This document shows, one piece after another, positions 5,797 to 62,337 of a stretch of DNA of 64,000 bases; the first letter of the stretch is position 1, and the number at the start of each line of letters is the position of its first letter. Below the pieces are notes generated by a model that was given only the letters and a program-made list of their open reading frames with translations, was not told the DNA's origin and ran no database searches. This stretch comes from Amoebophrya sp. A120 (Eukaryota; Protista; Dinoflagellata): positions 8,686,449 to 8,750,448 of the forward strand of contig CAJINV010000005.1 of NCBI GenBank assembly GCA_905178155.1, read 5' to 3'. The position numbers and the translations under genes are program-made.

Positions 5797-8700
5797 TCAC
5801 AGGTATTGGTATTCTAGCACCACAAATTTGATCACCGCCGCTGTACAATGAATAAACCCATCTTCCTCACCCTCCCCGTTCCTTCATTTCCTGTTGCGCC
5901 TGCTGCATGGCTTTCGCCGCGGCCTGGTTCGGTGGCAACGCGTTTTCCCCCGTGGAATATCCCGAGTAAAAACATCCCCACCCCATAGTCAAGTTGTCAA
6001 ATGATCTGCAACACAAATCCCCAAGTTTTGGCTGTCGAGCATGACAAGTTTGGGTTCGTAGTGTAAAATCCTGTGGTAGCTAGTGCAGCCGCATGACAAA
6101 TTGCCTACCTCATCCTGATTCCAGCACGACAAACTACCAGATAGCATTAGAAAGTGGCTGTCATGGGGCTCCGCATGAGAAACATTTTCAGCATGCAGAT
6201 TTGCATTACAACCATGGGGTGGGGAAGTCGAAGTTTCTACATAGGATATGGAAAACTCGTTGAACAGCTGCTTTATCCTCGTTTGCAGCTGCACTTTCGG
6301 ATCCACGGACATCTTCATGGCCTCTTCAAGTAACATATCCTGAGACAAAAACAGATTATACCCATCCATTTTTTGCATGACAAACACTAGACTTGCTGTA
6401 CGATTGGCATGACAAATTGGATGGGGATGGGTCTTTGTTTCTTGTGGATACAACAGCGCCTCCTCGTCCATGCTGTCTTTATTTGATGCTTTTGCTATCG
6501 AACCGGCGATATCCTGTGCAAAAGTATCGTGCTCGTATTGCGATCATGCATTACAAATTTTTTTCTGAAAGCAAATCCGCATTACAAAGTTCATTTCTCA
6601 TGCTGAGGAAATCTGTAAATGCATTTATACGAATACGATACTTTTGCAATTCATAGGCGGCTCCCGTTTGCGAAGGCGCAGACACGGAAGGTTGTATGTT
6701 TCCTCCCGCACCAGCACTACTGTTCGTAGTTGAAGAAGCTCCCGCCCCGGAAGAAGTTAGAGTAGTAGGTGCACCACCGCCACCTGGAGCTCCTCCGTGT
6801 TCACCACCTTCCATCGCGGCTAGCTTTTCTTGCTGCGATTTCGACCGGACCAAGTGTCCGTTGAAAAACCCCTCCGGTTCGGCCTGCTTCAACAAATTTT
6901 CCTCTGGCGGTAAGCTTTTGTCGGTTTTCTTCCCGCCGGAGAATGCGGTTAAGTCCGTGAGAATGTGAAAATCTTCCAGCATTGTCTGCATCGCTATGGC
7001 CATCTCCGGGTCGACGTACTGCATCCCGAGACTGTACCATCGTGAGAAAAAAGCGCTTCACTGTATAGGATTTTCAATCGCTAAAACAAGTTTGTTTGCA
7101 TATACAAGTTGTTTACACACGACATCAAAGAGAAAGAAAATTTGCCATGCGCGCTACTTCCTGTAAGGAAACAACGTTGAAACAAGAAACCCCAATCTCT
7201 TGCATGTGTAGCAAGACAAACACAAATGCAATCTATGCATCACAAGTTTAAAATAAATACAGTGGAACTACAGTTTTTTCTATCAATATGTAGTCGATCA
7301 CATCTGCTCTGGAAGACTGCGTTCCCACGTTGATGATCAGCTTCTGCTATCCTTTGCAGAAGTATCGTACTCGTATAAATGCATTACAAATTTCCTCAAC
7401 AGCATGAGTAGAAATAAAATTTGTAATGCTGATTTACCTTAGGGAAAAGATTTGTATATGCATGATTGCAATACGAGTACGACACTTTTGCCCAGGATAT
7501 TTGCTTCGGCGGGATCACGTCAAAAGTCACTGCAGAGACCCGGGATCCGCACATTCAGTATGCATTGCGCATATGTCCTCTGAGTCTGGAAGGATGGAAC
7601 TTGTCATGCTAAATTACTATCTATTATATTCATGCGAAAAAAGAGGTCTACAGAGGGTCGAAGGGAGGTGGCCGAGAGGTCAAAAAGAGGTCGACAGAGG
7701 TCAAAAAGAGGTCGACAGAGGTGGAGAGGTGGTGCAGGAGGTCAATCGAGAGGGTGGCCGAGAGGTGGCGCGGGTATAGCCCGCCGAAGGGCTCGCCCTA
7801 AAGCCGCGCCTATGGGGGACGGAGGTGGCCGAGAGGGTCCCGAGAGGGTAAGCGAGAGGTGGACAGAGGTGCCGAGAGGTTGCGCGAATAAGGGCGAACC
7901 TCTCGCGCACCCTCCTGGCCACCTCTCGGCCACCTCTGTAGACCTCTATCTGTGAGTATAGCCGAACTATTAGCAACACCTCTCGGGAGAGGTCAAAAAG
8001 AGGGTCTGCGAGAGGGTCAGAACAACCCGAATCCCCCCGGCACGCGGTCGATTTTCTTTGGGCCTTTTCATGGCGTTGACCCGCACCCTTTCGCGCTACC
8101 CTCCCGCTCTACCCTCTCGCGCTACCCTCTCGCGCCACCCTCTCGCGCCAGCCTCTCGCGCGACCCTCTCGCGCTACCCTCTGGCGCCAGCGATTTCCGC
8201 CGGGAAGCAAATTAAAAGGGGGCGGGTGGGTGATCAAAAAAAGGCAGCGCGGCTTCCGTTCTGCTTCCTTCGGCATCTATGTCGAGCCGGCTTCGTTTCG
8301 CCCCCAAGCTTCGCTGCAGCTGCTCCCTGCGCATAGCGCCTGAAGGCGCGGGAAGCGCGCAGTAGGCCCAGCGGGTTGAGATGGCGCAAACCGGCGCCAG
8401 TATTTCCTTCGACCTACCTTGACGCCGTGCGCAAACAAAGCTGTGGCGCTGTAGCCCGATCCGCAAATAGTCCTGCCCCACCACAACAGCCACTCGCCCC
8501 GGCGTCAGCCGGGGCATGGCTGGTCAGAATCATGCAAAATTCTGTGTTGCATGATTACCGAAAGCTGTGGTCCACTTTCGACCAAGTTGCGAGGGAGTTT
8601 CTCATGCAGAGCTGGCATGATGGAGACCTCACAGGATCTGTCATGCTAGGTTCTGCATTCCAGATCACATGGGTCATGCAAAATGTGCACGACAAGTCTT

Positions 8701-11700
8701 GCAATCTTCCAGAGGACCCAGAGGACATATTTGCAGTTGATATTCCGAGAGATTCCGTCATGTCGTACTGGACGCCGCAGGCTTTGTCGTCACTGTTATT
8801 TTCCATCGCCATGATGTATCCCGCGTCGCCGTCGCGGATAAAAATCGTTTGAAAATCCTTGTACTGCATCTGCGTCATCTGACACGTCAAAGCGGTTTTC
8901 TTCGCGTTGGATTCCCCGATCCCGCCCGAATTGTCGTCCTCCAGAATTGCCCAAATCGCCTGGTTGATCAGCTCCCAACTGGATTTCTGCTTCCGCAGCT
9001 TTGGCCCGGAAATCTTGTGGTAGCATATCAAATGCAAATATGTCTGAGTCTGGGAGACTGCAAGGTTTGTGATGCACGGATAGCATGGCTCTCAACTCTG
9101 TCATGCACGCCGCCCAAAACCTGCCACATTTCTCTGTCATGCAGAAACGCAGTTTGTCATGCAGAGACGCATCACTATTTATAGCAACTCCGAAACTTGT
9201 CATGCTTGGCTGTCAATGAAGGCGCCCACATGATTCGCCAAACAGCATAACAAGTTTCCAGACCCAGACATATTTGCATTTGATATTGCAGTGGATCACG
9301 ACATTCCCCTGTCTTGGGAACGCGTTTTCTTCCCTCAATAACGAAAAAGACAGCGGCACGACGAGGTAGGTGTAACCGCCCTCCAGTGTCGTGTAGATGG
9401 AGGTCTGGTCCTGTCTCGTCCGTTTCGCCCGCTGGACGAACTGCAGGATCTCATGAAAACTGCCGTCCGCCTTGGTATCCTTCATTTTCCGGAACACTAC
9501 AAACCCGATGTCCTGATTGGTCGATTTCGCGTTGATGCTCGCCTCCCGTTTCACGTGTCGCTCCTGCCAGATCGACAAGTCGATTTCTGTTGTTTGGTAC
9601 AAATCAAACTCGATAACCTCGCCCGGATCACCATTCTGAGCAAAAACGTTCCCAGCCCAAGGCTGTCATGCAGACTTGCAATTACAGGAGTCAATTTGCA
9701 ATGCGCATCCCCATCATGATGAGAGGCATTTGTTCCAGTCGTGTTTTGGCAACGTTTGTAATGCTGTAAACATGATAGGAAGACGGCTTTGCGATGCGGC
9801 TGCGCTTGTTAAATTGCACTACAATGCGGAGAGGAACTTGTCATGCGCGACTACCAAAACTTCTGGATTTGTGTTGCTAAGTTCGCAATCATTGACTCTT
9901 TCTAGGGTCGTGAGGACGCTTTTGCTCAGAATAACCGCCCGCGCTGGAAGTGAGCCAAACCCGCTCATCCGTTCGTAGCCAGTAGCTCGGGTGGACGCGA
10001 CAGACTTCCACCTGTCCGATATGAACTGCAAAAGTATCGTACTCGTATAATTGCATTACAAATCTCCTCAGCACGAGAAATAAAATCTGTAATGCTGATT
10101 TCTCTTCAGAACATGAACAAGATTTGTAATGCATGATTGCAATACGAGGACGATACTATTGCACAGGATATCCGAAGTATTTCCGCAAGTCTTCGAATTT
10201 CATCCAGAAAATGCTCATGTCGTCATGCATCTTCACGTTCGAGGTGTTCACAATCCCGAGCTCGAATTTCAGTTGGAACTATTGTGAGGAAAAATCTCCC
10301 CGCCCCATACCGAAAAGGAAATTTGTGATGCTGACTTGTGACCACAAATCAGCTTTGTCTTGTGTACAAGGCAAATGGCGCCTCCCATGTGGCGCATTGT
10401 CGTGCAGCCAGTCTGTCATGCGCTTTCGCGTATGGCAGATTCGTTTCTCATGCGCAGCTGCTAGCCGGATGCGTAGTACCCAAATAGGCTTAGAATATCC
10501 GTATTCCGGCAACAAGCTCTTGCTGCAATACAAGGTTCATTTGTGTACACAAATCCAGCAACGCAAATTGTCTTTTGAAAATGGGGTAAGGGGTTATTTC
10601 ACTTTGATAGAAACGGCTGTTTGTCCATCCACTCGCTACCGAAATCTCCCTTCCAGGTATCAAAAGGAAAAATCCCCCCTGCCCATATCGAAAAGCAGAT
10701 CTGTGATGCTGGACTTGTGTACACAAATCAGATTTGTCTTGGAGTGGAGGACTGCAGGCCCATACCATGCCAATGTAGAGAGGTTTTGGCCTAGGCGCTT
10801 AGCATGAGGAACGTCGATCCTGTAGGCCCAACAGCATTACAGATCCCCTGCATAATGTTAATGGGGCGGAGCCTATGCCGTTGCTTTCTTGCAAGACAGA
10901 CGCGATTTGTGGCCACAAATCAGCATCACAAATTCTCTGAGGCGTGGTTTATTTTCGATATAGGGAGGGGGGATTTTTCCGTACGATACCAGGTTTGCGG
11001 CGCCCGTTCCCCCCACGGATTCCGGATTTTGATCAGCCGGAAGGTTTGGTTGTCGTGGTTCAATTCCCGGACTTCCAACACTCCGTACGCGTGAGGGGAT
11101 TGTAACCCCTGGAGCACGACTTCTTCCCTCGATTTTTCCACCGCCTCGTGGCTGCAGGCTAAGCCCATGATATACCCCGCTTCGTAGTAGGAGAGCAACC
11201 GGTATGGGCCGCAAAAGTATCGTCCAACTCGCATATTGATATCATATTGCATGACAGATTGCTGCAATGTGTGTAGTCCACTTCGACTTTAGCATCAAAA
11301 ATCCTCTCTTTCACATCATTGCACAAAATTGTCATGCTATCAATACAAGTGGCGCAAAGCAATAAAAATTTTGCGATGCATAATCGGGTCCACATCACGT
11401 CGTTCTGAAGATTATCGTCCAAAGCGTCAACTTCGTCCTGATCGTCCTCCGGGGGTTGCTCCCCCCGGAATAAAGCTGCCATTTTCAGTTGCTGAATCTG
11501 GGTTCTTCTCTTCGCCCTGGCTTCCTTGACCGATTTCGGCTCGTACAAACGCATTGTCTCGACGGGGTAGCTGTAATTGTATTTTTTGCATAGGTATTAA
11601 AAGCCTAACGCTTCTGACCTCCTGTCCCTGTGGGTTCTATGCATCACAAAACAATCTACAGTATGACACGTCGCATGATAAAAGAAAGCACACAAGAAAA

Positions 11701-14700
11701 ATGTCTATACCCTGTCAGCAGCCCCAGCGCTTCTCCGAACGTGCCGCTATTCAGCGCCGAGTAGCAGCCAAAGAGCTTCGCCGCGGCTTTTTCAATTAAC
11801 GGGACCCACAACTGTCTCCTCCGTGACTGCAAGTAGCTCAACTCCCCGCCCTGTGCGAAGTAAATGCTCCCACCGTCAATTTTCCCATCCCACACTTTGC
11901 TGCACGGGAAGAGGTCGTCCAGCAAAATGCCCCGCCACTGCCCGGCGATATCCACAAGAAATTTCCCGTACATGTACAAATGCGGTCCCTGCATGACAAA
12001 ACTTGGCTTCGATCCTAGTTTAGCATGACACGTTTTACGGTCCAAATTGGTGAAATTTGTGATGCATGTTGTACATGTAGGGGAAATTTGTATTGCATAG
12101 GCGAAGCAGAGTTGCACCAAGTAGGCGCCGTGCTTGTTGTGGTCTTTTTTGTTGAAAAAAAGTTTCTCGACCAAATATGGTTTCAGAGCGACGACGGACA
12201 AGGCTCCAGCGAACCAGCAGTTTCCTATCGCACCCTGCACGACGTCCTCCGCTCGGGCTTCTTCGCGTATCACCTTCCACGGCTGCCCTAACGTGTTCCC
12301 GTGCTCGTCGCGGAGGAAGCCGGCGCAAAGTCGGGACTTCAGCGAGTTGTCGGTGATGGTCGGATACAGCATGTCCGTGATTGGGTCGCTGCTGCTCGAG
12401 CATTATCCTGTGCAAAAGTATTGTACTCGGATATTGAATGCTATTCTTGCATGACAGATCTACTTTTTTTACCTTAATTTGCAAGACAAATTCAAGGCTC
12501 TTCTTTTGAAGAAGTTTGTCATGCGCTTTATGCAGCTAGCACGTTACTCTTACTTTTGCAATGCATAAACACGGTCGCAGCCACGCGCTCGGGCGGAAGT
12601 GGAACTTCGTTACGGAAACATTCGTCGGCTTCGCTCGGCAGTGCCCGCTATGCATTGCAAAAGTATCGTATTAGTATAAACTGCATTACAAATGTCCTCA
12701 GCATTAGAAATGAAATTTGTAATGCGGATTTGTCTTCAGAAAAATATTTGTAATGCATGACAGCGATTACTACGAGTTGTACGATACTTTTGCACAGGAT
12801 ACCCGCACAGGATGCTGTCCAGCTTCGCTTGGAGACTTATCGCCTCCTGCTGCGTGGTATGCATTGCAAATATTTCTGGGTCTGGACGCGAACTTCTATC
12901 TAATGCGTATCTTGCATTCCTGGAAAATCTGTGTTGCATGAGCAGCAAATGAGCGGCTTTCCTTGTTATGCAAAAAGGCGATTTGTCATGCGCGTCACGA
13001 CGCAGCAGAAAGCGTTTCGAAAGTTTGTCATGCTTGGCTGCCATTGCAAGCGTTCTTGCAGTCATGCGCAATTCAGCATCACAGGTTTCTAGACCCAGAC
13101 ACATTTGGACTGCATACGTTGCTGGTTTTTTAAACAGCGGCGGCAGCGGGTTTCGTTTGTGGCAGTTGAAGCACTCCCAGGTTTTCCCGTCTTCGGGGTC
13201 TGCGTAGAGAATTTTGTCGGAGGCTACGAATTGGTAGTCGATGTAGGGCATCCTGTGCAAAAGTATCGCACTCGTAGTCGTTGTATTGCAGTCATGCATT
13301 GCAAATTTTTTTCTGAAGCTAAATCCGCACTAGAAATTTTATTTCTCATGCTGAGGAAATTTGTATATGCATTTATACGAGTACCATACTTTTGCAATGC
13401 ATATAGGGCTCCCCGAGCTGGGCCTGGATCGCGTTCACCTCGTCGACTTGCGTTTATGCATCGCAAATATGTCTGGGTCTGGCAACTTGTGTTGCTGTGG
13501 CTGATAGATACCTGCATTACAGACTGGCTGCTTCGATACGGCACAACAGCATGAGAGGTTTACCTCAGCTCTTTGCGGATTCATTCGCATGTAGCATTAC
13601 AAACTGCCATCCAGCACGACAAGAAAACTGACCAATCGCATTCCTGCATTACACATCTTGTCGTCCTTAAAGTCCCGCATCACAAATCCAGACCCATACA
13701 CATTTGGATGTGCAATGCATAGCTTCGGGTCTATCACGATGTTCTCGTCCGTGAACCGCACAAATTCCACGTCCTGCCGGTCTTTCAACCCCATCGGATC
13801 GTCGTCCGCGTCATCTTCGCCGTTTCTTTCCCCAGTAGTTGTTTTCTGCTTTTTATGTACCTGTCCGTCCCCCTCTCCCATCGACATGGCGAGCGCGGCG
13901 ATCAGCTCTTCGTCCTCCTCATTGTGGGACATGGAAACGTCTAAATCGTTGTTCGCTGTTCCTGTTTATGCATTGCAAAAGTATCGTACTCGTATAAATG
14001 CATGACAAATTCCCTCCGCATGAGAAATAAAATCTGTAATGAGAATTCACCTTGAGCAAAGCATTTGTAATGCATGACTGTAATACGAGTACGATACTTT
14101 TGCACAGGATACTGTTCCACCATTGGCGCCACTACTGCTTGCTGATCCTCCTCCTGTTGTGTTTGTATTTGCTATGAGAGTGCAGAACTCCACCCCCTCA
14201 TGGTCCTCATCGGTGCTATGCCTATGGCATGAAGATGAACAGCATCACAACCACCAACACACGTGGAGCCTGTGCATGACAAGTTCACACGCCGAGAGTA
14301 CTGAGTGTTAGTACTGTTGCGGCTTCCGGATTTTGTATATGCAAATAATGCCACAAGGCACCAACTGGATTTTTTTGAGTTTTGCATTACAAATGGGCGG
14401 CAATTGTGCACTTTCATATTTGCGTTGTCCCCTCTCGCGGATTTCATCGGTTCATCCTCCGCATCATCGTCCATGGAGAGCAGAATACACTCGATGAGCT
14501 CATTCGCCTCTTGCAAAGCCGCCGTGTCATTCTCCGAATAGATCCAAATCCCCTCATCCTTCCGGAATTTCAGAGACAGCAGCAAAGCGTGGCCCGGGAC
14601 TGGGATCTCGTTGAGCCAGGTTTTGTTTTTGATGATACTATCGTTGTTCACGGTGCCGGCAAGGAGTTTGGTGAGGGCTTGGAACGTTTTTTTCGGCCTC

Positions 14701-14735
14701 GGGGTTTCCTGGATCGATTCGATAAGGTCCTCCAT
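5797..14735 (-). CDS. CAPN15: SOL/calpain-15-like cysteine protease (PUB-like N-terminus, UIM, CxxC/CxxC Zn finger, CysPc, SOL-type C-terminal domain, second UIM); ~21 introns
   Basis: Spliced exons give VVQGAIGNCWFAGALS (catalytic C), WVPLIEKAAAKLFGCYSAL, GLQSPHAYGVLEVR (H), LIKIRNPWGE (N), DEELIAALAMSM and DEEALLEEAMKMS (UIM-like), WECFNC...CGHC. Symbol reflects family resemblance, not proven orthology; the 3' end is approximate. Confidence 0.88.
5958..6248. mobile_element. TIR introner (singleton type)
   Basis: tatcccgagtaaaaac...tttctacataggata, perfect DR tggaa; splicing gives LFNEFS|TGENALPPNQAAAKA. Confidence 0.8.
6336..6450. mobile_element. Short TIR introner
   Basis: tatcctgagacaaa...tttcttgtggata, DR (t/c)aaca; interrupts the UIM-like DEEALL|EEAMKMS. 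Confidence 0.8.
6510..6655. mobile_element. TIR introner family A
   Basis: tatcctgtgcaaaagtatcg...cgatacttttgcaattcata, DR ggcg(a/g). Confidence 0.9.
7038..7288. mobile_element. Degenerate TIR introner (family F-like)
   Basis: catcgtgagaaaaaa...ttttttctatcaata, DR tgta(c/g); splicing gives DVIDY|SLGMQYVD. Confidence 0.7.
7348..7499. mobile_element. TIR introner family A
   Basis: tatcctttgcagaagtatcg...cacttttgcccaggata, DR t(c/t)tgc. Confidence 0.88.
7559..8742. mobile_element. TIR introner family B carrying a nested element
   Basis: Left arm tatgcattgcgcatatgtcctctgagtctggaag; right arm cttccagaggacccagaggacatatttgcagttgata; host is ~274 bp without the insert. Confidence 0.85.
7614..8523 (+). 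mobile_element. Non-autonomous Helitron-like element nested in an introner
   Basis: a|ttactatcta start; end hairpin gccccggcgtcagccggggc + atgg + ctgg|t; no TSD; internal agaggt/cctctcg minisatellites. Confidence 0.7.
9026..9285. mobile_element. TIR introner family B
   Basis: tatcaaatgcaaatatgtctgagtctgg...ccagacccagacatatttgcatttgata, DR t(a/t)gca. Confidence 0.9.
9632..9933. mobile_element. TIR introner (singleton type)
   Basis: cattctgagcaaaaacgttcc...ggacgcttttgctcagaata; splicing gives SSAGG|DPGEVIEFDL. Confidence 0.75.
10020..10170. mobile_element. TIR introner family A
   Basis: tatgaactgcaaaagtatcg...gcacaggata, perfect DR tccga. Confidence 0.92.
10280..10609. mobile_element. TIR introner family C
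   Basis: tattgtgaggaaaaatctccccgcccc...ggggttatttcactttgata, DR g(g/a)aac. Confidence 0.8.
10658..10988. mobile_element. TIR introner family C
   Basis: tatcaaaaggaaaaatccccc...gggggatttttccgtacgata, perfect DR ccagg; splicing gives RNPWGERAPQTW|KGDFGSEW. Confidence 0.92.
11203..11382. mobile_element. Degenerate TIR introner family A
   Basis: tatgggccgcaaaagtatcg...ttttgcgatgcata, DR a(c/t)cgg; splicing gives VMWTR|LLSYYEAGY. Confidence 0.8.
11571..11710 (-). other. Canonical GT-AG intron retaining introner hallmarks
   Basis: Minus strand gtatag...ttacag; splicing gives LLTG|YPVETMRL; contains gcatcacaaa. Confidence 0.7.
11949..12099. mobile_element. TIR introner family G
   Basis: tatccacaagaaatttcccgtacatgtac...gtacatgtaggggaaatttgtattgcata, perfect DR ggcga; splicing gives VQLCFA|GQWRGILLDDLFP. 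Confidence 0.92.
12404..12567. mobile_element. Degenerate TIR introner family A
   Basis: tatcctgtgcaaaagta...tacttttgcaatgcata; DR degenerate. Confidence 0.8.
12649..12801. mobile_element. TIR introner family A
   Basis: Perfect DR cccgc; splicing gives SILCG|HCRAK, completing a CxxC. Confidence 0.92.
12858..13116. mobile_element. TIR introner family B
   Basis: tatgcattgcaaatatttctgggtctgg...ctagacccagacacatttggactgcata, DR cgt(g/t)g. Confidence 0.85.
13249..13403. mobile_element. TIR introner family A
   Basis: catcctgtgcaaaagtatcg...tacttttgcaatgcata, perfect DR taggg. Confidence 0.9.
13455..13721. mobile_element. Degenerate TIR introner family B
   Basis: tatgcatcgcaaatatgtctgggtctgg...ccagacccatacacatttggatgtgcaatgcata. 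Confidence 0.8.
13967..14111. mobile_element. TIR introner family A
   Basis: tatgcattgcaaaagtatcgtactcgta...tacgagtacgatacttttgcacaggata, perfect DR ctgtt. Confidence 0.93.
14173..14418. mobile_element. TIR introner family H
   Basis: tatgagagtgca...tgcactttcata, perfect DR tttgc. Confidence 0.85.
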
Positions 14736-15547
14736 TTTCTTGATAATATTCTGGGAAATGACTTTGGTTTTGGAGCAGTTCGTGTTTTAAAAAGAATACC
14801 GGTTCAATTTAGAAGCAACTCCTCGTCGTGAAACCACGGGGACTACAATCAACGGCTCTACAACTATATGCTACGATTCTACAGCGCTATCTTCGCACAA
14901 TGTTAATGTTGCCTGAAGACGCCTTGGATGAGAAGAAGGTGAATGAGAAAGCAGAAAGCCACCCCCTTAACAGCCTTTATGTGTGGTATCACGAAGTCAG
15001 ATAATTTTGAAGCAAAAAACAGTGCATATTTATCTTCTGTGTCTTGAAGTCATAAACTACGACCCCCCAGAAAGATACACCCTGATGATTTTGAACACCG
15101 GGCTCCTGTAGGTCCCAGAAAACGACGTATCAGTTTTCGCTGTGTAAAACTTACAAGTAGTTCCCCATGCTTTTTTACTCATCCAGGTGGTATATTAATC
15201 TTCACGTAGAAGAAGATGCGTGATTAAAACATTAGTGCGAATAATTCATGCTTCTGTATTCTCATGAGCAGCTGTCGAAGAAGGTGATCCAAAAATGTGC
15301 CGTGTCCGTATCAGACACGAACAGAAGATGCGCATTGCAAATAGTAAAGACTAAGAATGAGTAGTTACTTACCTTCGACGTAGTTGTGGAAGGAACAAAT
15401 GCAAAAGTGAGACCCTAAAGGTTTTCTTCAAAATCAAAATCTATCGAGCATGAACAACATGATGAACAAGGTCTGATCTATCACGACGTCGTGCAAAAGT
15501 GAAGAAACGCCGTCCCAAATCTATTGCAAGACACCTTTTCACAGCCT

Positions 15548-38200: not shown

Positions 38201-41200
38201 TAGGCATCAGGAAGCCCTCTAAAAATCTGTGATGCTAGGCCGTGCATTACCGACATCCTGGGTCATGCAAAATATGCATGACGAGTCTCAGAATCTTCCA
38301 GACCCAGACATTTTTGCATTTGATAGGTCCGCCGGCGGGACGATCTTCGCGATGGGAATCGTCGCGAGGGACTTAGTATCGCAAGAAAAAACTGTTTCAC
38401 TGTGAACCTGTGATGCAGAGAACGAAACACCAAAGTGTCTGTCTTGCTACACCTGCAACACAATGGATTTTTAAGTGTGTTTTCCGTTGGGAAACACGCA
38501 TGGCAAATCTTCTGTGTCATGTGTAACAAACTTGTGATGCAGATCTCGCAAAACCATCACAGTGAAACAGTTTTTTCTTGGGATACTTAGGCGTGGCCGA
38601 AGTAGAGCCTGCACCTCCTGTCGCGCTTTGCTCGTTCTCACTACCAGTGGAGTCCCGCATGCTTTGCCGGTCCTTGCGCGGGGTAGTACGGTCCACGACG
38701 GTTATCGCAAGAAAAAAGTGTCATACAGTTACACATATGTAGTTGTAACTTCAGCAACACAAACTTGCTCTGCGTGACGGACAAAACTTGCAATGCAGAA
38801 ATCCTAAGAGAATAAAACACGTATGAAAGGCGACTCGCAAGCCTTTCCGGCATGACAGAGGTTGCCTGTCTTGCGAGTTATGCATCACAGTGTGTACTAG
38901 CTGTAACACTTTTTTCTCTGCATAGCGGTCCATTCGTTGCTATCGTCTTTTTCGTGCCGGATTGAAGTGACAGACGTCGGGAGATATCGCAAGAAAAAAC
39001 TGTTTCACTGTGAACTTGTGATGCAGAAAATGGAACACAAAACTCTTTGTCTTGCTACACCTGCAAGGCATTGGATTTTCAAGCGTGTTTTCCCCTATGG
39101 GAAATGCGCGCATGACAAATTTTCAGTGTCATGTGTAGCAAACTTGTGATGCAGATCCTGCAAAGTCATCACAGTGAAACAGTTTTTTCGTGGGATAGGA
39201 GACGAAGATGAGCTACACCTGACGAGAGGATTGGAACTTATCCTGTGCAAAAGTATCGTACTCGTATAAATGCAGGTCTTGCATTACAAATTTCTTTGTC
39301 AAGGCAAATCAGCATTACAAATTTTATTTCTCATGCTGAGAAAATTTGTAATGCATTTATACGAGTACGATACTTTTGCAGTTCATAGAACTGCGTTTAG
39401 TGCAATGCGCACGCTCTTCGTGATTTGGTATTGAGCACCAGCGGATGAAGATCATACATTATCAATTGCAATGTAAAATCAAAATAGAAGTTTAGGTAGA
39501 TCACTGTAGCCGGAGCGAACTGCATTATACAAGGAAATCAATTGCTCTAGAAGCGTGATAATATGCATTTGTAATTGTAAGACCAAAAAGAAAAGTGTGC
39601 TCCTACAATGTCGCTTTCAATACATCCAGACTTTCCGGCCACAGCGATCACCGGACTGTCATCGTCGTTTTCTCCTTGACCGAGCGTTCTCGCCTTGCCA
39701 CAGCCATTCGCATGGTCTGTTCCGTCGGTCATCAACATGGAGTCTTCCGCACCTTAGATTTTTTCGTGAAATGTTGAGATGATCCCGTTGCAAAAAAGAA
39801 GAACCTATTTTGTGTGGCAAAAAAGCCTTGCAGCTTCATCAACAGAACCGTAAAGCAGCAACATCCGTATCAGATGAATAGTACGCATGATAAAAACGAC
39901 TACGGATTTACACTTCCTACCATTAGCCGGCGTCTGAAATTCCATTTTCCCGGATGGATCGGGTTCGGGGCTGAATGTGCGGTCAATGGTGGGAAGCTGC
40001 GCCGAAGGCTTCGCGATCGTGTCAGCGTGCTTCGCTGTGGAGGGCGACTCAAAGAACCTAGTAGTGGTGGATCTGGATGTTGTATAATAAATGATAATGT
40101 GAATAAATCAGCAACACAAATTCTAAACCATTTTGTCATGCATATCCCGATTCCTCCATTATCAACATTACGAATACAGAGCGTCCTCCCCGGCGCCAGT
40201 CGCAGCTGTCGCGGCCCGAGCTGATTGCTCCCCAACGCTTTCCCGATCGCTATGCATTGCAAATATGTCTTGGTCTGAAAACTTGTGATGCAAGGAAGGG
40301 AATAGTGAAAACACTGTAATGCGTTGCCCAGCGTGACAAGTTTTGCCGTGGTTCTGAGTTGCGTACTCCGCATGAGAAACTGGGTTTTTGCATGACAGGC
40401 AAGAGGACCTCTTGGTGGCCACGCAATACAGAGTGCAGAGACATGCCAGACTGACATGACAAATCTCGCAATCTTCCAGACCCAGACATATTTGCATTTG
40501 ATAATCGCTTTCAATGTACCAAATCGGCTTGAAAGATTGTTTGGAGCACGCACGTATGCATTGCAAAAGGGTCGAATTTGTACTAGTTGCGCTATATGCA
40601 TTACAAATCTAGTTGCTAAGGTAAATCAGCACGACAAATTCTATTTGTCATGCTTACCGAATTTGTGATGCGATTTCTACTAGTAGCACGATCCTTTTGC
40701 AATGCATAGCACGCAGCCGCTGGTGCTCTTCTTCGTTCTCCGATGCGTTGCTGCTTCCTTCTTCATCATCCTCGGACGAACTATACGCCTTTTTGTCCGC
40801 CAAAGCCAACTCCATGTTCAAAATCTCGTCTCGGGCAGACACAGAGGTGGTGCGCTTTATGGAGTTCTCAAATGTTACTTTCTCAACTGGTGTTACATGA
40901 ATTTGTAATACAAGAACGGCAAAAGTGAGAGGGGGAAAATTGCTTCTTTTGCATTACAAGTTCTGCACACATTTAGGTGCTGTTTAGCCCTTCGAAAATT
41001 TGTCATGCGAAGCAGCTTTCTCGTGTGGAACTTGATGGTAGTTCTGCATGACAAAGTCATGTAACAATTGAGAATGTAACAGTTGAGAACGCCATACGCT
41101 TGAGAGCAGAGGTCGTGTCGTGGTTCGCCGCAGCTGCAGGGGTCTTCGCAGAGGTCGCGGAGTTCTTCGGCACGCTGGTGCTATGATTCTGTGTACTGTA

Positions 41201-45052: not shown

Positions 45053-45405
45053 AGGGAGAAAATAAATCCACTTCCCCTGCTGCTTATCTTCGTCCATTAG
45101 AATCAATTTGACTGTAGTGTGAAATAAGTGAAAAAGAGTTAGATAATTGTGTTTGTGTTTGTGATCATCTATTTGGATTTGTTCACCAGTGTTAATAAAC
45201 TATCACCCAATAATATTCTCAGTGTCGTAGTTCCAGAAGTATCGTCAGATGTGTTGTAGTAGAAGCTGGACAGACCCATCTTGGTTTCTCGTCTCGTGAG
45301 GTCAACTGCCGTGAGAGAGTGACGGTTGTCGTGCATTTGAGCATTACAAAAGTTTTCTCATGCGCACGACTCACAGGTTACTCTCCCCGCTGGTGACGCT
45401 CATCT

Positions 45406-50155: not shown

Positions 50156-50496
50156 TGACGAGGAACGCACTGACCAAAATTGGCAGAGACAAAGCCGCTT
50201 CATCAAAGACCGAAAAATTTCTTTTCCTGTTCAAAAATCCTCTCGATCTCACTCAAAATCTCTGTTTTCCCGCTCAAAGTTCCACGAAAACTACATTAAG
50301 CCTCGTAAGCAAAATCCCTCCTCCACAATGTTTTCCTCCGCCAGGAGAAATACTTACTGACGCGCCGCAATGAACAGTGTTCCTCCTCGATTTTCTTCAA
50401 TCTTGATCTTCTGATTTGTAGTTGTTTCACTGCAGCTTCTACTGCCCCTTGTCTGAGGCTGCAATAGAGTCGACAAACCATCAAAACTGATCTTCA

Positions 50497-53912: not shown

Positions 53913-56288
53913 CTACAACGAGTCCTCGTCCTCCGCCTTGCACGGCAGCACCCTCCGAATCATCGCCAACAACCCAAATCTTCCAGTAGTCCCCGCGACT
54001 TGTTTGGCGTTATCATCCCCATCACCACCAGACTTTTGTTCCCCGTCGGTAGTAGAAAACACACTCGCATTTTTGCTCCGATCATCATCATTATTTCCCT
54101 TAAGGACTTCCTCTTCCGCAGCCAATTCCTGGCACTTGTTCTCCAAAAACGCCACTAATTCGTCTTTGAACTTCAATTCCTCGCTCTGCATCTTCAATTC
54201 CTCCCGTTGGTAGTTGATGATGTTGTCCTTCTCGAAAATCTCATTCTCTATCAAATGCAAAACAATGTCTGGGTCTGGAAACTTGTGATGCTAGTTGAGA
54301 AAGACGAGGACGCCTCAATTATCTGGCAAGCATGGCAAGTTCTGGAGGCGCTATAGTCTCGGTTTTTCCGCATGACAAAGTGAGCTTCTGCATAACAGAA
54401 AAGTACGGCTACTTTTGGGTAATGTGCATGACAGACTTGAGAGTGATGTCAGACAAGCATGACAAACAAGTTCGATTCTTCCAGACCCAGACATATTTAT
54501 TGCATTTGATATTCTCCAACAGTTCACATTTCTCCTTCCACCGCAGAACTTCGGTCAGGTTGTCTTCAGAGGAGTAGACAGCCGGGTCGCGTGAGTTCTG
54601 CTGCAGCAGTTCTACTTGGGGTCCTTCAGAATCAGATTCATCGTCGTCCTGCGCCTCATCTTTCGACTTCGATTTCGAACAAGAAGTTGTAGTGATGACG
54701 ACCTTGCTCGGGGTAGAACTTATCCACGGGAAATTTCCCGTAGGTACACGTGGAAATGCGGTCTCTGCATGAAAAAACTTGGCTCCGATGCTAGTTTAGC
54801 ATGATAAGTTTTACACTCCCACTCCGAAATGGTGAAATTTGTGATGCATCTTGTACATGTAGGGGAAATTTGTATTGCATAGAACTCAAGGATGAGCTAC
54901 TAGAACTCGCCATCATTGTCCCCGTGCTGCTTTTGGTCCAGATGAATTTCGTTTCGAAGATGTCCACCACCGGCTGCCAGGATTCGAAAGTGTCAATGTC
55001 GACTCCGGTTTAATATCCAAGGAAAAAACATCGCACTCATACTGATTTTTGCAGATATGCATGACAAAGCTGCTTTTCTCGAGGTAAACCAGGATGACAA
55101 ACTCCATTTTCATGCTGTCAACTACGAATTTGTGATGCAATGTGCACTAAATTATTGTAGAGTGCGACACTTTTGCAATGCATACGGTTTCCTCCTCCTC
55201 CGGAATAATTACCGCCAGATTGACCAAGTGATCGTCCTCCAGTGCCGGGGAGACGAACTTGCCGTGAAAGTGGTTCTCCTCCTCCTCCTGTTGGTCTTGG
55301 TCTTGCGGGGGCAGGATGGTGTCCAGCATGGTTTTGTTGTTCTCATCCTCTTGCTCCACCATCGCATGTAACTCTTGCGACATTTGCTCCTTGCCCACAA
55401 TTTCCTTTTCGTCCACCTGCAAATCCGGCTTCTCCACCACGGACAAGTGCTTCGCTTCTCCCCCAGAGAGTTTGTCATGCACGGCGACGAGCCCTGATTC
55501 ACCAGATTCAGCCGCAGCTGCAACTAAAACTAGTCCCGCTTGTTCCGCGGCTTGTTCAGGTTGATTCCCCGGCGATGTTGGGGTTGGCAAACCCGATGAA
55601 CCATTTCCAACAGCAACAGCGGGATCGATCGTCTCGACAGGACTAAAGGGTTGGAAAGACGTCGCCGTCGTGGCCATTTCGACGGGAGAAGATGACTGCG
55701 AGTTCATCTTCGAAGGTACGCTAGAAAAACTGGCCTGCCGTTTCACGTTCGGGTAGAAAACTGTGGCGCCGTCGATAATGACCGGAGAAGTCGTCTTCGG
55801 GGGCTGGAGGTATGATTTAAGGTTGTGTTGATAGATTTTGATTTGTCGGCAGTTGGACATGATTCGAATGTGTCATGCAAGGAAACACAACGCATCCAGT
55901 CTATTTCAGCATATATTGCGGGCACCAAATAAAAAAAAAAGCATTTTCAATTGTCGTCTACGTCTGCTGTAAGTACCAAATCCTTCCCGGCCGGTCCGTA
56001 GAAGTCATCACCTCCACTTTTTCCACCTAAACCCCGCACCCGCTCTCTCGCGGCCTTCGGTTGGACGTCAAGCTGGTAGAAGTTTCGCTCCGCGTCGAAG
56101 CTGAGAACCTTCCCCGTGATCCATTTCTTGTGCGTTTTGCTTTGGTATTCGACGGTAGTGCCGCGGGGGAAGATGGGAGGGCAGTTGCCGTGTGCTACAC
56201 CTGGCACCGCTGGCTTGATGTTGTCATCTTCCTCGTCGACCTTTGTCGGAACGATGACGGGACGGATTGTAGTGCTGGTCACGGGCAT
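53913..56288 (-). CDS. Hypothetical protein with an N-terminal Tudor/SH3-like segment and a C-terminal coiled coil
   Basis: FPRGTTVEYQSKTHKKWITGKVLSFDAERNFYQLDV; acidic linker; last exon coiled coil ending AMIRRVLPCKAEDEDSL*. Confidence 0.6.
54249..54511. mobile_element. TIR introner family B
   Basis: Family B TIRs, perfect DR ttctc. Confidence 0.92.
54721..54881. mobile_element. TIR introner family G
   Basis: Paralogue of the 11949 copy, perfect DR gaact. Confidence 0.92.
55014..55184. mobile_element. Degenerate TIR introner family A
   Basis: tatccaaggaaaaaacatcgcactc...gagtgcgacacttttgcaatgcata; cggtt repeated nearby. Confidence 0.75.
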
Positions 56289-58340
56289 GATGGTGGTTCA
56301 ATAATGTTGGGCAACAAAGTGCTGCTTTGCGATTCGGGAAGGACCACCAATTAGGGGCACGTGCCCGCTCTTCTACGCAAAAGAGGAAATGCTTTCTTTC
56401 CTGTGTATTGTGCAGGTGCTGATTGATAGCTTCGATTCGAGCGCTACTCTGCACGAATTGTGACTGATGACGCAGATTTCCGACGCAGGTGCTGGGAGTG
56501 CGATTGCAGTTTATGCACAAAGCTATTCGAAGAGAAAGACTTTCACAACGACAACACCTCTATCCGCGGAACGTCTACCATAGGCTCGCCTCCTTCTCAC
56601 ACTCTAGAATCTGCTCACAAAAATAAAGGATGCGCACTTGATTATTCCCGTAGCGCGGCACGCTCACTCACAGGCACAGCAGGGCGCGCTTGCTGCTTCC
56701 ATTACGAACTCGCCTCAGAGAATATTCCACGGCACGGCTCGGCTGCATCGATTCATTTTCCACGGGGTGTGTGGCATACCTCCTGACCCACTGTTGCGGG
56801 GCGCGGGGGCGCAAGCCCTATCCACGCTGCGAACCACAAATGCCATCCTTCCAGCATCGGTCGCGCGCAGCGGGCGGCCGGGCACCACAAGCGCGAAGGA
56901 GCGAGAAAGCAAAGGCCAACACAGAGGCCCAGGTTCTTCGTACGTTCCACAGACAGAACGGCGCCGCCGGCAGAGAGCAAAGAACACTCCGACGCCCATG
57001 CGCCTTACTTACATGCGCTACGCCAGAGGCGGAACATGCAGTGCAGGCAGGGCGACCGAAACAACCGGGCCGCCGAACGATACCAGCCGACGGGGCAGGA
57101 CCCGCGCCCGCCTCCACCCGGGGGCGCGCGGGCGCCAATGGGCTAGGGGCCCAGAGAAGGCGCCGCCCGCCAAGAAGAGCCTGCCGGGCGCCTGGCGTTC
57201 TCCGCCCGCTGGGCGGCTCCACAAGACTGGAGCGGGCTCGCCCTTTCGCGGTGCGTTTCGAAGGTGGAAGCCTCCCCGACTTTTTGCTGTAGAGGCTCCA
57301 TCAGCGCGTCGGCGAGCTGTCGGACCAGCCACATGCCCTGTCCAGCGCAACGCGCCGGCCCCTGCCCCTGCGCGTGGCTGCAAATAACAAGGACGGGCCC
57401 ACGCGCTAACGCTATGGCACGGGAGGCCACCTCTGCCGCCGCTAGCGCGAGCGAAAAGCGGCACGGGCCTCCAGGGCGGCGGGCTTACGGCTCGCAAGGC
57501 CCTCAACGCGCTCTCTGTTACGCCCCAACTTCTACACATGTTCGCACGAGATGAGTTCATCGTGCAGACGCTCGACGCGCTTACCTCCGAAACAATCAGA
57601 AGCGACTCAGAAACGTCAACGCTCCACGCACCTCTTCCTCACCTCTTCCTCTCATCGCATAAACGCTCCACGTACTGCATCTCTCCCTCATCGTGCTTGT
57701 TCGTCTGCAAATAAGAGGAACAACGTGACGAAACGGTAACAGGGTATCGAAATTCCAGAAACATATACGAAGATACCCTCAATCAAAATTGCCGAATCCG
57801 ATGATAGTGGTGGAAACGGCATGGACGGTATGAGCCACTTACTGTTACTGTTTACTTGGATTCTGTTATTTTGCACGGAATATTGACGATCTCTTACCCT
57901 TGCGCCAAGAAGTCTTTCAGCTGTTTGTTTATCTGTAGCTGATTCACTCCTTGCACACACAGAGTACTTCTGTTATCTTTTCTACACTTCTTCCTCGCAT
58001 CAGACGAGGACTTAGCACTGTCCTCAAACTATTTTGCATAGCCTTATTCCGAACGAGCAAGCGCTTGCACTTCTTTTTGGTGAAACAATGCGTGCTGTAT
58101 TTCTAGGATAGGCCGCTGTGAAACTATAAACATAACTTAGAAGACATGATCGGTCGTGCGAAACTACAGCAATTTCATCTTGTATTGATTTGGCATTGCA
58201 AACGTGTTACGACGCAGCTCGAATGTTATGTATATATTGCACATCATGACAGCACATGAGATATTTTAAATTGAAATCAATATGATATCAAGGTTTGGTG
58301 CATACGTAACAACTCTTTCTACCTCCCACACCAAATCTCC

Positions 58341-59627
58341 TCACTTGCAGCTGACCGTGTCCGACAACACCTTGACAAAATGGTCGAAGATGGATTTCCG
58401 TTTCATCTCCAAAAACTTCTGTTTCAAGTCCCCCAGCTCCGCCTTCGTTTCCTCCAACTCCTGTTTCACCAAATCGTAATCCTCCTTGGAATATGAACTG
58501 CAAAAGCTGCATCGCACTCGTAGTAATCGCAGATATGCATTACAAATTTTATTGTAAAGGTAAATCCGCATTACAAATTCCATTCTTCATGCGGAGGAAA
58601 TTTGCCATGCGATTTATACTAAGTACGATACTTTTGCAGAGGATATGGAATACACCGGTCTGCTACTAGCGTAGTTCACGCTCAAATTCTGCTGGTTCAG
58701 GGAGAATATGAATTGCAAAAGTCTCGCACTCGTACTGGTTGCAGTATAGCATGACAAATGCAACTCGAGTATCTGAATCAGCATTACAAATTGCATCTCC
58801 CTTCTGCAAAAATTTGTGATGCTACCTGTACTAGTAAATGCGATTTCCTGTTGCAATGCATACAGAAGTAGCTCGCCCCGCTGGAAGAAGCAGAGCTGGC
58901 TTTGGACTCGGAGTGTATCCTTTGCAAAAACGTCCACACCCCAGATTTACGATGGGAATTTGGCAACACAAATCCCGACGCTTTGGGAGTCACGCAAGAC
59001 AAGTTGCAGTCCTTTGGGTGGTGCAGGGTAGCAAGATGGAGCGCCAGTTTATCCTGTTTCTGTTTACAGCATCACAAGTTCCACGACGCGACTGAGAATG
59101 CCTGTCATGGGGATCATGCACGTCGCAAATGTTCCTGTCTTTGCAAATCCGCATCACAATTCCGGGGAGGAGGTGGACACGTTTTTACACAGGGTAGACC
59201 GGGAGGATTGTTCCAGTATCGTGGTTGATGTGGATTCGGCGCTAGCCGCGGTTGCGTTTTGTAGTCCGGCGAGTACGGTAGTCCAGAAGGATGAAGAAGA
59301 TTCCTGGTCGGCGATGTTCTGGGAGAGTTTTGAGTTTTAATTTTATGTAGCAAGAGTGGCTGCACACAATGTTTAAATATTTGCAAAGGAGTAGCCGTGG
59401 CTCCGAAAATCTTTCATGCATGGCTGGCAGAAGGATATTAACAAAACAGAGCTCCTGCTGCATCCACGAATCCTTATATCGATTAAACTTTGTGCATTTA
59501 CATGTATGTGATCTAGTACAGCAGATTTCCCCGAGCCAGTCTCAGCCTTCGGCGCGATGACCTCCTCAGACGGCAGCATCATGTTTCCGAAGGCCTTCTT
59601 ACTCGGGCTCTCGAGCTGTGCCGGCAT
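58341..59627 (-). CDS. Small coiled-coil protein ending FVKVLSDTVSCK*
   Basis: ATG at 59627; exons separated by elements 58916, 58707 and 58492. Confidence 0.6.
58492..58645. mobile_element. TIR introner family A
   Basis: Family A TIRs, perfect DR tggaa. Confidence 0.9.
58707..58862. mobile_element. TIR introner family A
   Basis: tatgaattgcaaaagtctcgcac...ttgcaatgcata, DR (g/c)agaa. Confidence 0.85.
58916..59196. mobile_element. Degenerate TIR introner (possibly related to 5958-6248)
   Basis: tatcctttgcaaaaacgtccac...gtggacacgtttttacacagggta. Confidence 0.7.
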
Positions 59628-61702
59628 TGTTTTATTTTGCAGAAACAGCTGCTACTGACCGGATTCAGTTCGTCCTCGCACTGTAACTCGATTCTGATGG
59701 ACACAAATAAAAGTCAAAAGAAGCTACTTCGTCAAACAACCGAGCTTGCTGGTCCTACTCCGCAGAAGCGGGAAGCCTGATACGGGCGCTCAGCCACTCA
59801 ATTCTTCGGAATTTTCGAGCGAACAGAAGCGCACAAGCCAGATATTAGGTTTTGGATCAGGGTTCCTGATACAGCATTTTCGTCCCGCGCTTGCTACCAA
59901 AAGGACGCACAAGACGAGTCTTCGAGTGCTCTACTTGCCCAGACATGGTCAGGCCGGAAATCTACTACGCGATACGGAGCGCGCAGAAATGGGGGCCCAA
60001 CTCTTCTAGAACGCGACGTCCCCTGGTGGCTGAAAGAAAACACGCAGTACTGCATGAAAGGCAAGCGCCGGTCGGAGGGTGCTTTGCGTAACGGGTACCC
60101 CCGGGCCCCCGCAGCTTTGGTGACATCGCGTCGCCACAATCGGGTCGGCCTACGTGCCTGCCAACCAACTTGCGGGGGCGGTGCAATTGCCCACGCGATG
60201 CGACCGTGCAGCAGGGGCTGGCCCACTCACTTACAGACATGGGCGGGCCACAAGCCTGCCGGCCGCCTGGGCCGAAAGGCAGGGGCCCCGGCCCACGTAT
60301 AAGTAGCCAGAACCAGGCGGGGGCCGCAGCACATGGGCCAAAGGCCCCGGCCGACTGGGCCGGCCCGGGGCGTTCCGCGGCCTGGCCCGCCACAACCAAC
60401 GAGAAGAGAACAAAAGGAAGCGAGGCCGCGCGCGAACCGGCTGCAGTGCCTCCATCTCGCGAGACTCCTGCACCCCGCACGGCGTTAGCCTGAGGGGCGG
60501 CCGCGATGGGCGCCATAAATTATTGCCACTGCCGTCGACCAGGAGACGGGAGGCAACGCGCCACACACCCACTGCCGCGGGCGGCCCGGCACGACCCGGC
60601 CGGGCTCCTCGGGGGCGCCGCCGAGACGAGGCGGGGCCACCGCCCTCCCTCTGGGGAAGCGCGGCCCACCTGTGCGCGCAGCGCGCGGGCCGGCCCCGGA
60701 GCAGGGTGATCGCTCTCGCCGACACTCGGCCGCACTGCTTGGGTACCTATTCGCGGCACTTTGAAAACGTTTCCTCGCTCACTTCATCAACGCTCCCTCG
60801 GAGATCGCCACAAAAAGAACAAAACACTCCGAAGCGGCACACTTGATGCGCCGGCGCGCGGCTCAGGTCCAACTAACAGGAGAGAATTTCTGCCACCGGG
60901 GCCGACATCAATTCAACAATAAGAATAAGCACTTCATCTCGCCAGTCTCGATGCATATGGCTGTTCAAAATCAAAATGAAAGTCGAAACTGAAATTACAG
61001 GTAAACGTGCACTGCCAAAGATTTTCTCAACTCTTGTCCGAGTGCTTGCTTCAACAAACTCATTCAAAAGAAAAAGCTCTATGATGTGAAAGAAAAAGTT
61101 CTTTTCCTCTGCCAAGGACGACTCGTCCGGCGATAAAGTCAAATTGATAGCTCTAAGGAGGAGGAAAATTTGGAAGAGTCAACTAAATCGACGAGTACTT
61201 TATTCTCTGGAAGATTTTATGCATGCTCAAGCTAGAGTTGGACGAAAATAAAAATGGTTTCAATCGATAGTCTCTTACTCTTTTGCAATTGATAAAGTTT
61301 GCTAGTAGATGGGTGGGTTTAATGAGATAAAAGAAACATTGCGTCTTTCGTCTAACAGTATCACAGGCACTTGTTCAGGACGAGCATGAGGAAACAAGAA
61401 ACAAAAATCGCAGAGAATTCTTCTAGTTCATTTTGGATGTAAGATAGGTAAACTTGTCATAAGTTTTGGTAAAATCTAACTTGCGCTTCAAGATCGAGCA
61501 TCTATTGGCTAGAAGAATGCAATGGTGAACAAAGAAAGAACGAGTCCGTGATCAGTAAGCTCAAGACAACTAAAAAATGGAAACGAATGCTGAACGAATT
61601 TGAAGTTGAACTGAAACATATTCAAGTAAAATAAAACCCTCCTTTTGCTTCTTCCTCTCCCTCCCCACTGATCTCCACCACCACGACGGCTTCATTCCGC
61701 CC

Positions 61703-62337
61703 TTACTTGCACGTGGTCATCTCCCGCATCATCGTCAAAATCTTCACAAACACGTTTTCCGACTTCAATTCCGCGATTTCCTTCTTTAACTGCCAAATCT
61801 CCGCCTCGTTGGATTTCAACATCAGGCATCCCCTGAAAATATTTATACCACTTGTTTCAGCTAATTTTGTCATGCAAGCCATGGAAGGACTTCGGTTTTT
61901 GTCATGCTTATAACAGAAAGTTGTCGGAGTGGTACATAATCTTCAGGGCATATCACCTTCTGATTTTCCACCTCCCCGGACTGTTTTTCCAACTCGCTCT
62001 TCTTCAAATCCAGTTCCGCTTTCAACGCGTGAAACTCCGCCAGCGTCGGGGTTTTCTTGCTGGTGGCAGAAGAAGAATTTTTCGTGAGGGAGAGGTTCTT
62101 GGAAGAGGAGGAGTTGGTCGCTTCTTTGTTCTCATTGTCCTTTTTGGAGCTGAACAACCCGGCCCACCAGCTGGTCGTGGGCTCCGCCTGCTGCTCGACG
62201 ACTTGCTGTTGCTGTTCCGGCATTTTTGGTTTGGTTTGGGGGTGTGTCCGAACGAAGTTCGTGGCGTTTGATGTGGGCGGCCACTCAAGGAGGTTTTGTC
62301 GACTAGATGAAGGACAAGCGGGTACTATTGGAAGCAA
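61703..62337 (-). CDS. Small coiled-coil protein ending FVKILTMMREMTTCK*
   Basis: MPEQQQQ…(ATG 62223; ORF open further upstream)…ENQKV|MLKSNEAEIWQLKKEIAELKSENVFVKIL…. Confidence 0.62.
61827..61952. mobile_element. Short TIR introner
   Basis: catcccctgaaaatatttatacca...tggtacataatcttcagggcata; removal restores the frame. Confidence 0.75.

Follow-up and report, generated by a model that had tools for sequence, protein, structure and literature searches.

A conserved subterminal motif in the introners of Amoebophrya sp. A120 as a putative protein-binding site on double-stranded DNA

Introduction

A short sequence motif is described here that recurs in the introners of the dinoflagellate Amoebophrya sp. 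A120, as found in a 64,000-nucleotide stretch of contig CAJINV010000005.1 (assembly GCA_905178155.1, positions 8,686,449 to 8,750,448), hereafter the window. Introners of this strain were described with ends of the form TAT-N7-AAA, short direct repeats, non-canonical splice pairs and 29,850 copies (Farhat et al. 2021, PMC7789003). According to the same paper, no U1 small nuclear RNA (snRNA) was detected in A120, and no introner transposase is given (PMC7789003). Among 40 of the 58 A120 rows of Gozashti et al. 2025 (PMC12130899), most families are DNA elements with terminal inverted repeats (TIRs), of unknown superfamily. One of them, fam38, is assigned to Ginger, with a 5-bp target site duplication, TA/TA termini and integrase-like frames; its authors state that it is without the usual Ginger ends and homology (PMC12130899).

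The elements of the window agree with the published A120 introners in organism, TAT-N7-AAA ends, short direct repeats, non-canonical splice pairs and the lack of a known cognate transposase (PMC7789003, PMC12130899). They differ in that the published descriptions, in the text available, give terminal repeats only, without pairing at 31-33 bp or phasing, and describe the splice position as variable with respect to the hairpin. No internal motif is described in the text of PMC7789003, and GCAT and ACAAA are absent from the text of its supplement, although its figures S19 and S25 could show it; none is described in the text of PMC12130899 (whose remaining tables could show it), PMC11282704 or PMC12005148. 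A full-text search for the motif gave no Amoebophrya or introner paper among the matches listed (15 of 22). The introners themselves are already published; in the literature searched, no account was found of the internal site, its three-turn pairing, its phase with the element end or the fixed splice register.

Protein sites placed internally, at set distances from the end, are present in the multi-site ends of Tn7 and Mu and in the TnpA repeats of En/Spm, and Tn7 and Mu make 5-bp duplications. In these systems and in the P element, all sites of a single element family point the same way relative to the end, whereas in A120 the orientation differs among families and ends. The P element has internal transposase sites at set distances, 9 and 21 bp at the two ends (PMC7776569). 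Hermes, a hAT element, is similar in having several short subterminal repeats per end, in both orientations and arranged differently at the two ends, which are bound by the BED domains of a multimeric transposase (PMC10368747). The Hermes site has 4 bp and the duplication 8 bp, (PMC10368747), whereas the A120 elements combine an 11-bp site, common to many families, with a 5-bp duplication and strict three-turn spacing, and are spliced. The duplication of hAT5 has the same length as that of the A120 elements, 5 bp (PMC12730594), and no hAT enzyme was found in the sample described below. The Ginger-like fam38 matches in its 5-bp duplication and TA/TA ends (PMC12130899); no integrase frame was found in the sample. 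IS3EU, whose TAYGG ends resemble some TATGG ends, was rejected because its duplication has 6 bp and not 5 bp as here (PMC12730594).

Motif and elements

Elements were identified by a scan for inverted ends with flanking repeats. They start with TAT, end with ATA and are flanked by a 5-bp target duplication; 66 were found in the window, older copies included. The larger sample came from one metagenome scan with 93 stretches (80 from one assembly among the matches listed), from which 89 loci were used. After removal of overlaps it comprised 626 kb, none of which overlaps the window, and represents the same kind of sequence, not an independent lineage. Up to 81 copies of family A had been retrieved by a pattern containing the motif and were excluded from the divergence tests. 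Sites were called at 10 bits or more on an iterated matrix. Family letters are those of this analysis and may not match the families A-H of an earlier note on this DNA.

The motif is repeated near both ends of the elements and is conserved above their interiors; its reading as duplex DNA we infer from the geometry. The 10-mer GCATNACAAA, pointed out in the earlier note, is real and well above background: 117 copies were counted on both strands of the window (65 +, 52 -), with 0.96 expected and a maximum of 4 in 100 shuffles. The N base is G in 53 copies, T in 46, C in 16 and A in 2. The exact 10-mer makes up only 833 of the 2075 matrix sites, and the matrix yields a fuller 11-bp motif, GCA(T/A)(G/T/C)ACA(A/G)(A/G)(T/C). 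Five of the six examples quoted earlier are exact, at offsets of 33, 42, 40, 45 and 41; at 10700 the variant TCTGTGATGC is present instead. The majority of the exact copies (103) lie inside the 66 elements, 10 lie in GT-AG introns and four elsewhere:

16749, 45341 and 55471: exact copies in exons
25363: exact copy between genes

A convergent motif pair 12 bp apart, 45341/45353 (45341-45363), remains in the exon.

Elements of the window have 19 sites per kb, whereas coding exons have 0.44 and intergenic stretches 0.46, in agreement with the claimed rarity in exons. With the larger sample, elements (109.6 kb) contain 779 exact 10-mers, predicted exons (224 kb) 5 and intergenic sequence (157 kb) 25. 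Outside the window, 476 of 478 elements carry a site and 466 carry at least two, as scored with the window-trained matrix; the number of sites per element is about four. A motif-blind k-mer count gave the 6-7-mers of the motif as words common to all 11 families of the window, which bears out the statement that the families share it. A viral collection gave 19 stretches with the paired motif, a single match each and taken as chance, and 0 matches to the family A end. Apparently non-coding GC-rich intergenic islands at 4100-5250, 49400-50200, 52300-53050, 56800-57550, 60050-60750 and 62750-63600 are almost free of the motif.

Window and loci together contain 527 elements; the 5-bp duplication is perfect in 393 of them, a figure favoured by the detection, and there is no base preference at the target. 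The 519 elements of up to 500 bp fall into 36 clusters, 14 of which have at least two members. The published end rule (TAT, seven variable bases, AAA, inverted at both ends) is followed, families F and G diverging after TAT[AG]. In their many copies, terminal inverted repeats, duplication and lack of coding capacity, the elements resemble miniature inverted-repeat transposable elements, which are non-autonomous. With ends and sites masked, alignments between families gave z of 0.9-6.2 and within families 3.5-50.8; the interiors of the families are mostly unalignable, and a deep kinship of the families may exist. Since TAT[CG] ends and 5-bp duplications are common to the families, the motif is not their only shared feature. 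The earlier description of it as the functional core uniting the families was therefore overstated: the motif is shared, but ends and duplication unite the families too, and the ends set the splice register.

Spacing of the motif

Site pairs 30-33 bp apart average 13.8, compared with 2.65 by permutation (maximum 9 in 2000). A pair at 31-33 bp is present in at least half of the members in 11 of the 14 families. These pairs are direct or convergent and, within elements, not divergent. A length deviation of at least 2 bp is found in 8% of copies for their spacers versus 18-32% for other segments, and the spacer sequences are unrelated between families. The arrangement is exemplified by one element:

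39281..39355: motif arrangement in element 39239-39387, with direct sites at 39281 and 39312 (31 bp apart) and an inverted site 32 bp beyond

The centre of the outermost site lies 33-60 bp from the end at 113 of the 132 ends in the window and 38-51 bp at only 85. The distance, given earlier as about 33-45 nt, is stepped, not continuous. End sites face inward, outward or one of each, depending on the family. The 19 outward-facing family ends fall at 34-37 (7), 43-47 (9) and 55-58 bp (3), with R=0.81, a value that none of 1000 random sets reached; when each family contributed one end, R was 0.74-0.92 (p<=0.016). One end of family B is bimodal, with 34 copies at 36 and 49 at 44-45 (n=106). Divergent pairs follow a 10.5-bp period (R=0.66, without permutation test). 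One and three turns of B-DNA correspond to about 10.5 bp and 31.5 bp, so these steps suggest that proteins are bound along the same side of the duplex and in phase with the element end. The motif is probably a subterminal site on double-stranded DNA, common to nearly all TAT...ATA introner families, for a putative transposase or cofactor. The common cis-signal proposed earlier is supported. A protein site on DNA fits the two orientations, the 31-33 bp pairs and the helical-turn steps; a single-stranded site for a splicing factor or guide RNA does not fit.

Splicing and orientation

In contigs of runs X1-X4, which stem from one sample and whose RNA status is a guess, the elements are skipped together with one duplication, including 16313-16624 and 16869-17023; contigs of run X5 read through the introns. 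Twelve contig joints are present in 45538-48537, seven at elements and five at GT-AG introns. Removal at non-canonical junctions is seen at the seven element joints and in two further exact skips. The sole register that fits all seven element joints (45713-48536) is N/UAU...AUA NNNN, with the start one base before UAU and the end four after AUA; one joint decides alone and two set bounds. The nine commonest non-canonical splice pairs of A120 in Table S4 all start N-T (PMC7789003), and the six RNA-supported canonical introns of the window start with GUA. The element end appears to provide +2/+3 of a relaxed donor, UAU mimicking the canonical GUA, and splicing appears to use the element ends, not the motif. 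At element positions 4-7 the two ends match in just 34-55% of copies versus 80-97% at positions 8-20, and positions 4-7 vary faster than the interiors (0.119 vs 0.083); this mismatch may keep the splice sites unpaired. A target reading NNAG/G would, under the fixed register, yield a fully canonical GT-AG intron, and a predicted canonical intron of locus L050 shows this pattern with an intact TCAGG repeat. A drift of the duplication towards GT/AG was looked for and not seen. The family F element 44572-45052 is apparently spliced in the 3' part of a transcript, with a loose end.

The motif might instead be recognised in single-stranded RNA, whether by a guide RNA, a splicing factor or a variant snRNA, which corresponds to the second option of the earlier note. 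The branch-point-like UNAU contained in its reverse form would suit this, as would the reported absence of U1 (PMC7789003). Helical spacing is not expected of a single strand, however, and the splice register follows TAT/ATA while the site distance ranges over 33-60, which disfavours such a reading. The fixed sense on the transcript that characterises an RNA splicing signal was not found among 361 elements parsed as introns. No transcript-strand bias of the elements was detected in 11 families (72/60, 45/45; lowest p 0.14), 25 introns give RNA with one motif sense only and 18 with the opposite only, and the 5'-most and 3'-most sites occur in all four sense combinations. No co-variation of inverted end sites was found at the variable positions, and Rfam gave 0 matches in the window. 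Unbiased orientation, lack of co-variation and the 53 of 76 predicted canonical introns without a site (see below) make a single-stranded RNA or guide signal, or a requirement in all introns, unlikely. The option of a splicing factor or guide RNA does not fit these results, and we regard this explanation as highly improbable.

Another possibility is that the motif is a by-product, left over from a single ancestral element or from a 32-bp tandem unit, or no more than a part of the arms of an RNA hairpin. Ends are common to the families, masked alignments between families reach z of 6.2, and the RNAs fold well, with z of -7.4 and -6.9 for two introns. One of these has a terminal stem from +9 and unpaired ends, the other only partly paired ends. 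Folding pairs 55-86% of the sites with an opposite one in 9 of the 14 families, but only 3% and 6% in two families. Pairing in hairpins as the function of the sites was rejected on the latter figures and on the lack of co-variation between inverted sites. Spacers of paired sites are unrelated between families, and about three times less variation is seen in cores than in interiors, with position 5 varying freely among G, T and C; all told, a by-product is very unlikely. Recognition of double-stranded RNA is conceivable for the symmetric families and cannot be general.

Divergence and canonical introns

Private differences from nearest neighbours amount to 0.027 in the core, 0.047 in the terminal repeats and 0.083 in the interiors, and the core is lower in all 8 families. 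Position 5 of the motif varies freely among G, T and C. The lower divergence of the core could be explained by selection on master copies alone. With duplicated regions as a clock of change after insertion, 0/127 core and 10/734 interior positions had changed (p=0.37; changes were few, and one non-orthologous pair was omitted).

Outside the window, 109 canonical GT-AG introns were predicted, from which 76 without residual ends were filtered; the parser makes boundary errors. The GT-AG introns of the window that carry sites, all on the minus strand, are:

11571..11710, minus strand: GT-AG intron of the calpain gene without inverted ends; sites at 11641 (13.8 bits) and 11673 (9.1 bits), 32 bp apart
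45542-45687, 46527-46677, 46988-47131, 47397-47542 and 47666-47772, minus strand: GT-AG introns without inverted ends seen as contig joints, each with one or more sites scoring at least 10 bits
36837-36993 (pair 33 bp apart), 40058-40177, 51014-51225, 55804-55976 and 59319-59519, minus strand: GT-AG introns with sites of 10 bits or more, by prediction only, from a parse blind to the motif

These introns, and several other results, weigh against a site that serves mobilisation. All six RNA-supported end-less GT-AG introns of the window (five in one gene) carry sites, without a match to any family, and sites are present in 23 of the 76 predicted introns outside the window; shuffles gave 2.2, and among AT-rich intergenic windows 45 of 487 carry a site. 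In end-less GT-AG introns a site with no role beyond jumping should degenerate, yet the motif persists there. The earlier note had proposed a comparison of decay rates in old copies: across 557 copies, core divergence grows by 0.30, and the mismatch of the duplication by 0.57, for each unit of divergence in the interior. A neutral rate of about 0.03-0.05 per copy overlaps the 0.027-0.035 of the core, and neutral decay of the core is possible on this clock. In the geometry, family G and one small family are without a 32-bp pair, inward-facing end sites are unphased (R=0.41, p=0.995), and the 11-bp step could also reflect A-form double-stranded RNA; a possible deep common ancestry would make the 14 families less independent. 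Neither an autonomous element nor a transposase was found in the window and the 626 kb (about 690 kb), and the 1194-bp TAT...ATA element L078:6201-7394 has only one site of 10 bits or more.

The persistence of the motif could mean that a host protein binds it on DNA (or on paired pre-mRNA) and marks introns for a spliceosome without U1, so that elements spread by carrying the mark, which the host retains once the ends have decayed; a role in mobilisation could exist alongside. Besides the slopes and the end-less introns just given, all 175 of 175 older copies from a profile search retain at least one site, in a search that favours such copies, and all RNA-supported non-canonical introns of the window have the motif. 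Mismatches between the two duplication copies, one of which is exonic, are 0.036, 0.030 and 0.085 at codon positions 1, 2 and 3. The third position places neutral change at about 0.04 per copy or more, above the rate of the core, whereas the first and second place the intronic neutral rate near it. That U1 snRNA is undetected in A120 (PMC7789003) would also be in keeping with such a mark. On the other hand, 53 of the 76 predicted canonical introns have no site, the exonic copies at 16749 and 45341 sit within exon pieces retained in contigs, and cores do decay: the oldest bin has values of 0.097, 0.243 and 0.273 for core, duplication mismatch and interior. The motif-bearing canonical introns are mostly short (the motif is in 12 of 23 introns of up to 170 nt versus 11 of 53 longer ones), and some retain 45-66 bp of element-like sequence, as expected of deletion relics, which they may be. 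A GTAT start with an ATA-like end, a weak sign of element origin, is present in 8 of 23 with the motif versus 7 of 53 without; 5-bp junction repeats are not enriched (3/23 vs 9/53). Marking by a host protein is the main rival of the preferred reading; we regard it as possible but rather unlikely.

Proposed mechanism

Under the preferred reading, the motif would be bound as double-stranded DNA by the mobilising complex, either by the site-specific domain of a transposase or by a host cofactor. Two protein units would occupy the same face of the helix at a distance of three turns, and an outward-facing site would place a unit in phase with the cut end. All families would rely on one protein acting in trans; because every family would need the same protein, site and phase would be kept while the rest of the interior drifts, resulting in one motif in families that cannot be aligned. 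In splicing, the intron would open one base before UAU and close four after AUA, with a terminal stem from about +9 joining the splice sites.

The candidate partner would be a Ginger-like transposase of the integrase type, which is the best guess because A120 fam38, in which integrase-like frames are present, shares the 5-bp duplication and the TA/TA ends with the elements. Long TAT...ATA copies contain satellites or unique inserts, with longest stop-free frames of 69-195 codons. No Pfam family of transposases or integrases was found among 56 frames, and no further long pair of ends was found. The element L078:6201-7394 has a perfect 5-bp duplication, parses as an intron, contains several internal repeats of its own end sequence and a second repeated module, and has no Pfam match in its two longest frames.

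A further step is speculative and in our opinion unlikely: a host protein on the helically phased motif pairs would mark tens of thousands of non-canonical introns on DNA during transcription, replacing the missing U1 small nuclear ribonucleoprotein, while the same protein spreads the elements and the mark is kept after an intron turns canonical and its ends are lost.

Features of the window

The elements of the window are listed by family.

Family A, about 150 bp, ends TAT....GCAAAAGTATCG, 3-4 sites, both end sites inward: 3238-3380, 6510-6655, 7348-7499, 10020-10170, 12404-12567, 12649-12801, 13249-13403, 13967-14111, 16874-17023, 19921-20071, 20157-20306, 20509-22071 (1.4-kb insert), 28597-28762, 37451-37591, 39239-39387, 40555-40708, 45719-45863, 46752-46910, 47197-47349, 48386-48535, 55014-55184, 58492-58645, 58707-58862; seen removed in contigs: 16874, 45719, 46752, 47197, 48386
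A-like old copy: 11203-11382
Family B, about 260 bp, ends TAT....GCAAA(A/T)ATGTCTGG, 4-7 sites, end sites outward: 7559-8742 (insert), 9026-9285, 12858-13116, 13455-13721, 18683-18949, 26245-26499, 26540-26804, 29005-29262, 32623-32886, 38063-38325, 40251-40503, 41199-41456, 44249-44510, 45943-46212, 48088-48337, 54249-54511; seen removed in contigs: 45943, 48088
Family C, about 210 bp, one inward site at 51 and one outward at 35: 18410-18618, 35691-35900, 38377-38585, 38703-38924, 38985-39197; old copy 7038-7288
Family D, about 330 bp: 10658-10988, 27750-28074; old copy 10280-10609
Family E, 151-161 bp: 11949-12099, 54721-54881; site centres of element 11949 at 48, 80, 112 and 143, a lattice of 31-32 bp
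Family F: 16318-16624, 44572-45052; outward sites 45 bp from both ends, internal sites 32 and 31 bp apart; 16313-16624 skipped in contigs
Family G, about 236 bp, four sites 47-50 bp apart, no 32-bp pair: 29728-30776 (insert), 30857-31092, 40858-41096, 51411-51645
Family H: 14173-14418, 37046-37262
Family I, all sites in the same direction: 5958-6248, 58916-59196
Family J: 6336-6450
Old single copies: 9632-9933 (removal of 9627-9933 set by exon sum and reading frame), 27192-27394, 47822-48003 (47818-48004 skipped in contigs), 61827-61952

The elements are found chiefly in genes. Of 469, just 54 are located farther than 150 bp from a parsed gene, and the intergenic stretches of the window showed none. 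Length changes within families A-C are mostly of +3 or +6 bases (32 to 35 to 38, 31 to 34 to 37, 61 to 64 to 67), which is odd for introns and perhaps reflects a bias towards triplet duplication. GC-rich tandem or palindromic inserts of about 0.8-1.4 kb interrupt otherwise normal elements (7640-8200, 20640-21780 and 29920-30690 in the window); they contain almost no motif copies and match the 626 kb hardly or not at all. Three copies of a repeat of some 55 bp are located at 33230-33300, 34140-34200 and 35120-35175, one of them at the start of a reading frame. Locus L046 contains a perfect inverted duplication of 1768 bp (977-2744 and 10036-11803), possibly an assembly artefact.

All modelled genes of the window are on the minus strand. 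One is a calpain gene:

5870..14790, minus strand: calpain gene with 21 introns (20 elements, 1 canonical) and 1148 stop-free codons after their removal

Its exon sum from 9627 to 12099 is 858 nt, the same as in the contig. A calpain exon is 100% identical to a protein of Amoebophrya sp. A120 and 73% to one of A25, and matches Pfam Peptidase_C2.

Implications

With some 30,000 introners in A120 but neither a recognised transposase nor a detected U1 snRNA, both the spread and the splicing of these elements matter as questions (PMC7789003). The register N/UAU...AUA NNNN is a concrete and testable account of introner splicing. If it is true that the host retains the motif after insertion, the motif would be a DNA-level intron mark, for which we know of no precedent. 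The 11-bp site with its fixed spacing may serve as a DNA bait for isolating the mobilising protein, as a signature for finding autonomous partners, and as a marker of introner ancestry in introns that look canonical.

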